The notes beneath the pieces are model-generated. The model had not been told where the DNA came from and made no database searches. It saw nothing but the letters and a program-made list of their open reading frames with translations. A stretch of 64,000 nucleotides of DNA from Atractiella rhizophila (taxonomy: Eukaryota), in NCBI GenBank assembly GCA_021432655.1, contig MU271359.1, forward strand, positions 1-64,000, given 5' to 3'. Made by a program: the position numbers and the translations under genes. Below are positions 40,253-43,192 of this stretch, piece after piece (within the stretch, counting starts at the first letter, position 1; each line of letters begins with the position of its first letter).

Positions 40253-40990
40253 CGTCGTCTTTGGACGGAAGATATTATTTCGAATCAATATTATTTCGAA
40301 TCAACATCATGCAAGGACTCCACATTTGAAATTGCAATTTGAGGGCCCGAAATACTGACAGGGTGTTACTTGCTCGCTCAAGGTATATCTTCTTTTCTTA
40401 ATAGTATGGCTAGCTACCAAGTTGAACGTGGTCCACACTCATTTTAGCTCGAAGACCTCCAGAAAGCCCAAAGAGAGCTCGCCAGAGATCTTGTGGCTGG
40501 AGGATCACTAAAGTTTCCAGCTGCCTTCTCTTTGGTTCGGTTTCTCCAGCCTTCCTCTCCAGCCTATTTAAGCGACCTGACGATTCCACCATCGTCGCTA
40601 AGCTGATATCCTCAAGACATCGTGAGGTGAAGACTCTATCGATCCCACTTGCAAGGAAAGCTGAGCAGACGTGGTATGTCTCTGTTCGGTTGACCTCGAA
40701 GATGACTCGCTCATTTGGGTCTTGTTCTGTTCCTGCAGCACCTGGACCTGGCAGGACAAGAAGAAGCGGTTCAGGAGGCGACCATCGAGTTGTTAGAACC
40801 TCCGTCAGCTTGAACGAGGCGTTTTGGGTACAGTCCCGAATCCCCCGACGCTCTGCCGTTTGCATCTTCAAAGCCTTGCGCCTTTACATCCTTCAGGCCT
40901 CAGAGGCAAGCTTCCCCGTCAATATATGTCAACACCCTAAACAAGAACTAAATCTAGTTGTCCAGCTCTCTTTCGTATCCTATTTCCTTG

Positions 40991-42785
40991 ATGCCTTCCG
41001 ACATCCAGACCCGGCCTTCCATCCCTCCTTCAACCCTCCTCGGTCGCCTCTGGGTTTCCTTCACCACTCTTCTCATCACTTTCCTCATCTACTCCTCCCA
41101 GCTCTTCGTCTTATGGCCGGCATACGGTCGCGTGTTTTCGTGGGAACTGCTCGAACATCTCATCCCCTTCAACGCTCTCGCTGGCCTGTTGCTCTGGAAC
41201 TACTACAAATCGGTCACGACCGATCCTGGCGGAGTTCCAGTTGGATGGACACCTCCGAGAGATGGGACTGAGGTAGAGGTCAAGAAGCTGACTGGGGGAC
41301 CGCGGTGGTGCGGGATGTGTGAGGCCTATAAGCCTCCGAGGACGCATCATTGTAGGGTTTGTAAACGGTTTGTCCCGTCCGGTTTTCTGATGTGTCATAT
41401 TCTTACTCGGATATAGATGCGTGTTACGAATGGACCATCATTGTCCCGTGCGTCCTCTGTTCCCTGTAATTTACTGAACGAGAAAGGTTGACGGCGGATC
41501 TTAGTGGGTAAACAACTGTATTGGACATGGGAACCATCGCTACTTCCTCCGCTTCCTCTTTTTCGTCGACATTACCACATCCTACCACTTGTACCTAATC
41601 TCCAAACGAGCCTTCGGTTCTCTCGCCTACAGGAGTGAACCGTCGATTCAAGAAGTCATATTCCTCATCCTGAACTATACCTTCGGCGCACCGGTCATCC
41701 TCGCTGTTGGCGCATTCAGCATCTATCACCTCATTGGTTTGCTCAATAACACCACGACCATCGAAGGATGGGAGAAGGACAAAGTTGCCACGCTGCGAAG
41801 GAGAGGCAAGATACAGTCTGTTAGTCTTCCCCTTATTCAATCTCCTGGCGTTCTAACTAGCGTTGCTGGAAACTTTGGCACAGGTGAAGTTCCCCTACGA
41901 CCTCGGCCCCCTTGCGAACATTCGGTCTGTGTTGGGTGATAGCCCGTTGCTCTGGTGTCTTTGGGGATTACCGAAAGGAAGAGGAACAGAATGGAAGGTT
42001 CGAGAGGGAGAAGGTGAGGAAGTCGATTGGATGGAGGAGGTGCAGAAGGAGCGGAGGAAGGAGAGGGAGAGGGAGAGGGCGATCGTAGAGGAAGAATGGC
42101 AGATGGTCTAAACTCCCGCTAGCGTCTCAAAGGAGACGTATATTCTAGTTCATTGTAAGTGTTTCCATCTCCGCTTTTTGTAAGAAAAGGAAGGGAGTTG
42201 ATTCAGGTGCAGGATCAACTCATGACTCCTTCCTTCGCTCCAAAACTGCACCTCCACAAATTTCTTTGCCTACCTTTGAGCCTGTTACTGACTTTCATTT
42301 TCCTTGGGGAAACGTAGATCTATCTTCGCAATATACCTGGCCTCCGAAAGAACCGTTCGCCTCCCCATCCTACGCACCACCTCGAGCTCCCAGCGACCCG
42401 TTCACCTTTGGCCATGAGCGTCTAAACCCCTCCCTTCTTCCACCATATCACCCTGACTACGAGCCTCCACCAGAGGGAGAGGAGGGCGACCTCATCGATG
42501 ACGACGATGTGCCATTGGCGATCCATCAACGACGCGTGCGGATGAGACAAGGAAGTGAAGGGTGGGAAGTGCGACCTGTGAAAGTAGGAGATGTGGAGCG
42601 AGAAGCGATTCTTAGGGAATTTGAGAAGAGACAGGACGGTAATTTGGGACTTTAATGCAAATGTGACACCTGTGGACGAGGGAGACGATGAAGGGAAGGT
42701 TGATTTGGCAAGATGGGATAGGTATAAGAGATATGAGCCTGAAGAAGGTTATGAGGAGGATAGCTTGAGTGATTATTCGGATTAG
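40991..42785 (+). CDS. PFA4: DHHC palmitoyltransferase, PFA4-like
   Basis: TDPGGVP, CEAYKPPRTHHCRVC, MDHHCP|WVNNCIG, NTTTIEGWEKDKV, FPYDLG and YTWPP. The stop is either 42655 or 42785 (see finding). Confidence 0.9.
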
Positions 42786-43192
42786 CATTATTTATTCCGT
42801 GCATAATATGTGGTTAATGCAAGTTATTCCCCATCACACACCAAATTGTAGCCGTTACTCGTTATCTTCATTGTTGATCGTCGATAGCACTCTCCTTTGA
42901 GAACCCAGTGCAAGCGCGAACCTCATGGATAGTGGCCATTGGGATTGGAACACTTATCTCAAAGGCGACCTATTGTGACAAACGTTAGTCTGTTTCCCTC
43001 ATTTTGCCGCATCTTTCACTTCTGTCATCGACTTGCATTGCAATCAAAATGCCGCACCAGATCCTACTAACATACAACAATCCATTCCAACTAATTACGA
43101 AGGACACAAAATAAACCTGCAACTGATACCCAGGGCTTGAAGCAAATAATGATACACGTAGAATGTAGATGAAGTGGGAAGTGGTTAAATGG

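Follow-up and report, generated by a model that had tools for sequence, protein, structure and literature searches.

Two competing 5' splice sites probably set the C-terminus of a PFA4-type palmitoyltransferase in Atractiella rhizophila

The DNA considered here is a stretch of 64,000 nucleotides (nt) from Atractiella rhizophila (contig MU271359.1 of assembly GCA_021432655.1, positions 1 to 64,000 of the forward strand, called the window below), in which a DHHC palmitoyltransferase is coded at 40990-42785 on the + strand. We found that the interval 42014-42317 of this gene is probably an alternative-5'-splice-site module in a basidiomycete PFA4-type gene, and not one structured intron. Two donors, D1 at 42014 (GTGAGG) and D2 at 42155 (GTAAGT), share one acceptor at 42317. 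The RNA directly shows that D2 is used and that the tail-coding segment before it is kept, and splicing from D1 probably yields a conserved long isoform, as the orthologous proteins and the intact, conserved frame of the downstream exon argue. In the proposed scheme, splicing from D2 would keep 42014-42154, so that the protein would end after a charged tail of 32 residues at TAA 42109; this short isoform of about 316 amino acids would include the whole DHHC domain match. Splicing from D1 to the same acceptor would give the long isoform, in which the tail and its stop are removed and a conserved C-terminal region of some 155 residues follows instead. A second donor and an alternative coding end inside the interval, rather than a sensor RNA, would thus account for its unusual length. 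A first-pass annotation of the sequence had taken the interval for a single intron of 304 nt, about five times the typical length, acting as a bistable RNA switch that controls the palmitoyltransferase C-terminus. The length comparison holds, since the other RNA-supported introns of the gene measure 49, 57 and 64 nt, but the contigs show an intron of 163 nt at 42155-42317. Control of the C-terminus also stands, in that the interval appears to decide it through competing 5' splice sites; the bistable switch does not.

Contigs of four public runs (X23, X1, X2 and X24) were placed on 40900-42900. Such contigs drop minor isoforms and give no expression levels. The sole joint at the interval was 42154->42318, with GT..AG ends and 163 nt skipped, and it was present in X23, X1 and X2, of which two carry a study name and one carries none. 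As evidence for the core intron this joint alone was used; missing contig cover inside 42155-42317 was not counted. Contigs ran unbroken across 42014 in all four runs (X23 41884-42086, X1 41884-42052, X2 41968-42154, X24 41930-42094). Read in frame, the retained 42014-42154 region gives GEEVDWMEEVQKERRKERERERAIVEEEWQMV and stops at TAA 42109-42111. Among the junctions named by the first-pass annotation, the acceptor at 42317 and the donor at 42155 were therefore seen, but the 42014 junction was absent from the contigs and 42148 was retained. The parts of the interval and its surroundings are as follows.

41884..42013, + strand: constitutive part of exon 4, ending in phase 1 (RNA junction 41819|41884; orthologue alignment to ~42013-42030)
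42014..42019, + strand: D1, upstream donor GTGAGG, whose use would give the long isoform (long-form orthologue alignments)
42014..42111, + strand: exon extension coding the short-isoform tail (G)EEVDWMEEVQKERRKERERERAIVEEEWQMV, with TAA at 42109-42111 (unbroken contigs in 4/4 runs; translation)
42112..42154, + strand: spacer of 43 nt from the tail stop to D2, untranslated in the observed mRNA (contigs)
42155..42160, + strand: D2, downstream donor GTAAGT, used in RNA contigs (joint 42154->42318 in X23, X1 and X2)
42155..42317, + strand: core intron of 163 nt, GTAAGT..TAG (RNA contigs)
42288..42292, + strand: branch-point-like CTGAC, whose A lies 26 nt upstream of the 3' splice site, predicted from sequence only; CTRAY is the branch-point consensus
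42315..42317, + strand: 3' splice site TAG, common to D1 and D2 (RNA contigs)
42318..42785, + strand: downstream exon, the conserved C-terminal region in the putative long isoform and 3' untranslated region in the D2 mRNA (tblastn of orthologues)

The two donors are not alike. D1 carries no T at +6, a position at which the four RNA-supported donors of the gene all have T. Reading of the sequence gave GGT at 42013-15 as the sole in-frame NGT codon of the extension, and D1 is therefore the only donor that would join frame A to the downstream exon. Another sequence feature, TTGATTCAG, stands 53 nt after D2 (42155-42207) and offers a possible branch point and CAG, which would give an intron of a length typical for the gene; the contigs join to 42318 instead.

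Differences among strains bear on both reading frames. X23 held two variants of 42057-42154, at depths of 366 and 206. The second carries a synonymous A>G change at 42087 and, after the stop, 1-nt deletions at 42110 and 42144; it may come from another haplotype or another strain. Both tail substitutions in other strains, at 42021 and 42087, were synonymous, and the strain differences in the downstream exon comprised three synonymous ones and two that were not. The window has TTT at 42643-42645, and the contigs of X23 and X24 have one T fewer. The long-form frame stops at 42655 if the extra T is kept; if it is dropped, the frame is open from 42318 to 42785 and matches the orthologue C-termini in the other frame. 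The extra T is either a homopolymer assembly error or a strain-specific frameshift.

The family was examined at the protein and the locus level. Exon 3 matched Pfam PF01529 (DHHC) at 58.1 bits against a cut-off of 28.7, which places the product in that family; the Pfam search gave no match to the tail or the downstream exon. The nearest proteins were basidiomycete and named PFA4 or zf-DHHC in their sources, with only ~54-69% identity over exon 3. A set of 120 annotated orthologues, found with exon 3, was run by tblastn against the window. In the long-form orthologues (~430-450 amino acids) the alignment jumped from ~42013-42030 to ~42314-42338, matching a junction 42013|42318, and the downstream exon was conserved (E 1e-12 to 1e-13). 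A word-based protein search with the downstream exon for longer proteins returned no match. The public basidiomycete PFA4 models fell into two sets, of ~300 (24/120) and ~440 amino acids. In the short set, of 259-364 amino acids, the donor was read through into tails of the form G[KE]W[VI]E[LF]... (for example GKWIEF...), followed by a stop.

The same layout was found in metagenome loci. Both flanking motifs were present in 62 of the 80 loci taken, and the gap between them was 194-336 nt in 49, ~85-110 nt in 9 and 39-42 nt, leaving no intron, in 4. In the long-gap loci D1 was a phase-1 G|GTRAG, followed in most by an open tail of ~11-75 codons. Of 38 distinct loci, 24, one of them the window, had a strict donor GTRAGY at -3 to +63 nt from the tail stop; GTRAGY occurred 25 times in 2483 nt near the tail stop, compared with once in the remaining 6059 nt of sequence from D1 to the next exon. 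The loci with a second donor are phylogenetically clustered, yet they hold at least 10 tail types as judged by eye. Orthologous tails were under purifying selection. Between L006 and L048 the proportion of synonymous differences (pS) was 0.79 and that of nonsynonymous differences (pN) 0.074; the ratio of nonsynonymous to synonymous rates (dN/dS) was 0.06 for the tails of L048 and L033, and it ranged from 0.06 to 0.83 over the 13 computable pairs. The combination of a long intron, an in-frame tail reading frame and a second donor after the tail stop thus appears widely conserved, recurring across most orthologous basidiomycete PFA4 loci, and the two-isoform design seems to go back to the split of Agaricomycotina and Pucciniomycotina. 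A limited literature search (PFA4; Agaricomycetes alternative splicing) found no description of PFA4 splice isoforms.

Further observations were made on the tails and introns of this family. The tail often ends in valine right before the stop, as in 10 of the 24 annotated short forms (P0021, P0053, P0054, P0073, P0074, P0095, P0096, P0108, P0118 and P0119), in many metagenome loci and in the window (...QMV, 42106-42111); another 5 of the 24 end in ...EP. Speculatively, such recurrent ends might hint at a functional C-terminal signal. The long models P0014, P0019, P0030, P0063 and P0085 hold part of the tail (GKWIEFH..., GKWVEM...) before the C-terminal region, and these reflect either further in-frame donors or gene-prediction compromises. 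A short intron alone, with a gap of ~85-92 nt and no tail reading frame, was present in L027, L032, L041, L045, L054, L055, L061 and L077, and no intron at the site (gap 39-42 nt) in L002, L017, L021 and L031. In some branches of the family, then, the two-donor module either disappeared or never formed. In alignment A2 (L014, L057, L062, L066, L068, L069, L071, L072 and L074), columns ~145-166 contain a conserved GCTCAT...TATAG/TGTAG ~40-55 nt after D2, which looks like a branch point with a 3' splice site and so like a short nested intron; D2 is predicted to pair with the GCTCAT in this clade.

The interval also contains a strong long-range duplex, the elements of which are listed here.

42036..42063, + strand: 5' arm of the duplex, within the tail-coding extension (pairing, folding, energy)
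42187..42212, + strand: second copy of both "selector" words, the proposed state-B competitor (sequence; predicted pairing with the 3' arm 0.0)
42195..42221, + strand: inner hairpin, 10 base pairs (bp) and a 7-nt loop, -11.5 kcal/mol, probability 0.96-0.98 (pairing, folding)
42226..42255, + strand: 3' arm of the duplex, within the core intron (pairing, folding, energy)
42261..42271, + strand: segment able to pair with D1 in a G-U-rich helix, -10.8 kcal/mol (pairing, energy)

The pairings that the first-pass annotation had assigned to its state A, the donor helix and the inner hairpin were all recovered: 42036-45 pairs with 42246-55 (10/10 Watson-Crick), 42048-63 with 42226-41 (15 Watson-Crick and 1 G-U), the splice donor at 42012-22 with 42261-71 (7 Watson-Crick and 4 G-U), and 42195-204 with 42212-21 (9 Watson-Crick and 1 G-U). 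The first two helices together make up the main duplex of 26 bp, 42036-63 with 42226-55, at -50.7 kcal/mol. Its outer helix of 10 bp starts 22 nt after D1, and between the end of the duplex and the predicted branch point CTGAC at 42288 there are 32 nt, which makes a total linker of 54 nt; D2 sits in the 162-nt loop that the main duplex closes. Since 42014 is read through and the joint lies at 42154|42318, the observed mRNA has the 5' arm in an exon, and its coding part ends at TAA 42109; and with one arm in the tail-coding segment and the other in the core intron, the duplex is confined to the pre-mRNA. On the + strand the 306-nt stretch folded at -113.7 kcal/mol with z = -4.41 against 100 dinucleotide shuffles; the - strand gave z = -3.63. 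In a context of 421 nt (41960-42380) the state-A pairs had probabilities of 0.98-1.0, and removing the 5' arm cost 32.2 kcal/mol. The donor helix had a probability of 0.72-0.99 in that context and was not in the centroid of the 306-nt fold.

Several results weigh against the two-donor explanation or against a part for the helix in it. The 42013|42318 junction expected from D1 was present in no contig of the four runs, in which minor forms are invisible, and for the orthologues we infer the use of D2 from the position of the second donor. Strong favouring of D1 by the helix would be hard to square with three runs in which the D2 form stood alone. D1 was paired (mean unpaired 0.13) and D2 open (0.61) in the 421-nt fold, an arrangement that would mask D1; this prediction is context-dependent, the 306-nt centroid leaving D1 free. 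The total duplex energy, -89.6 observed and -75.6 to -80.2 as shuffle means, was matched in 18/600 part-wise and 40/600 block shuffles (3-7%). Across the family, 29 of 39 distinct introns were testable (28 orthologous ones and the window, with 40 shuffles each), and the other 10 had no recognizable D2 under the rule of the script. Excess complementarity between extension and core was absent from 27 of the 28 orthologous introns, only L022 lying above all of its shuffles. The observed complementarity was reached in 0/40 shuffles for the window and L022, in 3/40 for L050 and L079, and in at least 9/40 for the rest; in L022 and L079 the geometry differs, their helices pairing across D2 itself. 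Extension-core complementarity as a family trait was accordingly rejected. Masking of D1 throughout the family was rejected as well, the mean unpaired value being 0.34 for D1 and 0.39 for D2, with D1 less open in 14 of 24 loci. In the clade of nine sequences around L014, 32 consensus pairs included one with a compensatory change, and the covariation term of +0.26 gave no covariation support. Among these orthologues, none of them a close relative of the window, the arms were not conserved, and the 26-bp duplex is lineage-specific.

The helix may influence the choice between the two donors. A neutral helix is about as likely, but we lean, with considerable doubt, towards one that assists D1 as a zipper or by looping out D2: the path of 277 nt from D1 to the branch point would be cut to ~54 linker nucleotides, keeping some long-form splicing. 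Such compensation is plausible because D1 lacks T at +6 and lies 277 nt from the branch point. A ligand-free gate set by some signal (temperature, transcription speed, or a helicase or protein on the purine-rich arm), toggling the PFA4 isoforms, seems improbable. The opposite proposal, that the helix has no splicing effect and is a neutral by-product of purine-rich E/K/R codons facing a pyrimidine-rich intron tract, possibly with a local inverted duplication, is a serious contender to which we give somewhat less than an even chance. It accords with the composition-matched shuffles that reach the duplex energy and with runs of at least 16 pairs in 37/1000 cases when the purine-rich 5' and pyrimidine-rich 3' parts were shuffled separately. 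The arm complementarity is not kept in the orthologues, no orthologous intron of the set is as long as the interval of the window (73-297 nt in the orthologues, 304 nt here), and both arm words recur a third time at 42187-42212, which suggests local duplication. On the other hand, the compact two-helix chain of 26 bp was matched in 1/1500 and 0/1500 shuffles, by a statistic chosen post hoc, so that the excess of the duplex over chance depends on the null; among 12 short-range inverted repeats of the 64-kb window the duplex ranked first in strength; and a helix of this stability around a used donor would be unlikely to be kinetically invisible. Silencing of D1, by which the main stems and the G-U-rich helix would bury this donor, making the short isoform the default until heat, a helicase or a protein melts them and frees the long one, is unlikely in our estimation. 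The 41960-42380 ensemble fits it, with D1 unpaired at ~0-0.18, D2 at 0.4-0.9 and the donor helix at the probabilities given above, as do the contigs with D2 junctions only and the four G-U pairs, which work on the transcribed strand only. But the donor helix is weak at -10.8 kcal/mol, it is lost from the 306-nt centroid and replaced by different pairing in the intron-only fold, no masking trend runs through the family, and the weakness of D1 at +6 may alone account for the dominance of D2.

The remaining explanations found much less room. The first-pass annotation had proposed an undescribed bistable switch, gated by ligand, temperature or protein, in which the selector words 42187-98 and 42205-12 compete for the 3' arm; we regard this as very unlikely. 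The competitor words do exist: 42205-12 matches 42246-53 at 8/8, and 42187-98 with 42225-35, in the register of the first-pass annotation, falls short of a full match, with 8 Watson-Crick pairs, 1 G-U and 2 mismatches. There are precedents too, as mutually exclusive intron structures steer splicing in yeast RPL7B (PMC12311795) and likewise in introns with thiamine pyrophosphate (TPP) riboswitches (PMC3597705). However, the two folds are not of comparable stability: state-B pairs had a probability of 0.0, blocking state A costs the 32.2 kcal/mol noted above, and the B helices (B1 -12.8 and B2 -12.7, ~-25.5 kcal/mol in total) stand against -50.7 for A plus the hairpin of -11.5 that they would disrupt. 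Nor is the arrangement conserved in orthologues. A cmscan of 41500-42900 at E up to 10 gave only sR30, at 12.2 bits (gathering 38), E = 4.4, on the - strand and outside the intron; it listed neither TPP nor any other Rfam family for the intron, in agreement with the absence of a TPP aptamer core noted before. The riboswitch-like reading is thus not supported, and the duplex is real, though a feature of an ordinary kind. Insertion of a miniature inverted-repeat transposable element or another foldback element, marked by the inverted repeat, would explain terminal inverted arms of ~28-30 nt around ~160 nt and an intron longer than in the orthologues; it is highly improbable, as no further copy of the repeat occurs in the 64-kb window and the 5' arm lies within a tail reading frame whose layout is homologous to the orthologous tails. 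Finally, a long protein could come from the D2 mRNA itself, given that frame A in the window is open from exon 4 across 42154|42318 except for one TAA, either by read-through of TAA 42109 or by way of a 6-nt micro-exon at 42149-42154 bounded by the TAG at 42148 and the GTAAGT at 42155. Both variants are scarcely credible and were rejected. The two post-stop deletions of the second X23 variant break the frame of the D2 mRNA and spare D1 splicing, and therefore argue against read-through; 42014-42148 was kept in all contigs, which speaks against the micro-exon; and only in part of the orthologues do D1 and D2 share a frame.

If the two donors are used as we propose, the layout accounts for the split of PFA4 models into ~300 and ~440 amino acids, and neither set need be an annotation error, as both may represent real isoforms. 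Reports of old, conserved splice choices that change the protein are, to our knowledge, uncommon for fungi. Since the short form lacks the conserved region of ~155 residues but has the DHHC domain match in full, donor choice could alter the regulation, partners or location of the enzyme. In a fungus with short introns, the gene also provides a natural test of whether donor choice is biased by a very stable helix when one donor lies in its loop and the other is brought close to the branch point. Were the gate to prove true, a basidiomycete would have a splicing switch built on RNA structure and independent of a ligand, choosing between a minimal enzyme with a charged, valine-ending tail and the long form. 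The element is not a new riboswitch class, and its duplex is a lineage-specific helix of a known kind.

One such kind is the zipper stem of budding yeast, for which a length of at least 6 bp, a distance of 10 nt or more from the 5' splice site to the start of the stem, an end at least 20 nt before the branch point and a linker of 42-85 nt are described (PMC12350175). The window duplex falls within these limits, with an outer helix of 10 bp and a linker of 22 + 32 = 54 nt counted to a predicted branch point, and like the stems of Saccharomyces cerevisiae RPS17B and RPL7B it is lineage-specific and not conserved in sequence (PMC12350175; PMC12311795). The limits were, however, modelled on the budding-yeast spliceosome, and the yeast introns have one donor (PMC12350175), whereas the window has a second, used donor in the loop. 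RPL7B moreover has a conserved, protein-bound alternative structure (PMC12311795), whereas the alternative in the window is of negligible predicted stability. In Neurospora crassa NCU01977, an alpha-alpha' pairing promotes use of the distal donor while the inner ones are looped out (PMC3597705, Li & Breaker 2013); it was found in 16 of 18 riboswitch-carrying species at variable positions and was proven by mutants (PMC3597705). Like the gene studied here, NCU01977 is a fungal gene whose intron offers several 5' splice sites and holds a helix running from near the distal donor, without overlapping it, to near the 3' end, by which the ends are brought together; in the window too, a helix beside the distal donor encloses D2 at 42155. 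The two differ in that the 3' strand of NCU01977 lies within a TPP aptamer and the ligand breaks the helix, whereas the window, known from sequence and folding, has neither aptamer nor conservation, and in that NCU01977 favours the distal donor, whereas the inner donor is the one seen in RNA here. Fungal TPP riboswitches of the NMT1/THI4 type select a donor by pairing to a 5' splice site, the proximal one being masked (PMC3597705). Pairing to a donor could likewise be the case here, but those riboswitches need the TPP aptamer, for which the Rfam search of 41500-42900 gave no match. As for the splice choice itself, a comparable case is SKI7/HBS1 in Saccharomycotina, where an old conserved choice makes two proteins from one fungal gene, in a different gene and a different clade (PMC7491326).

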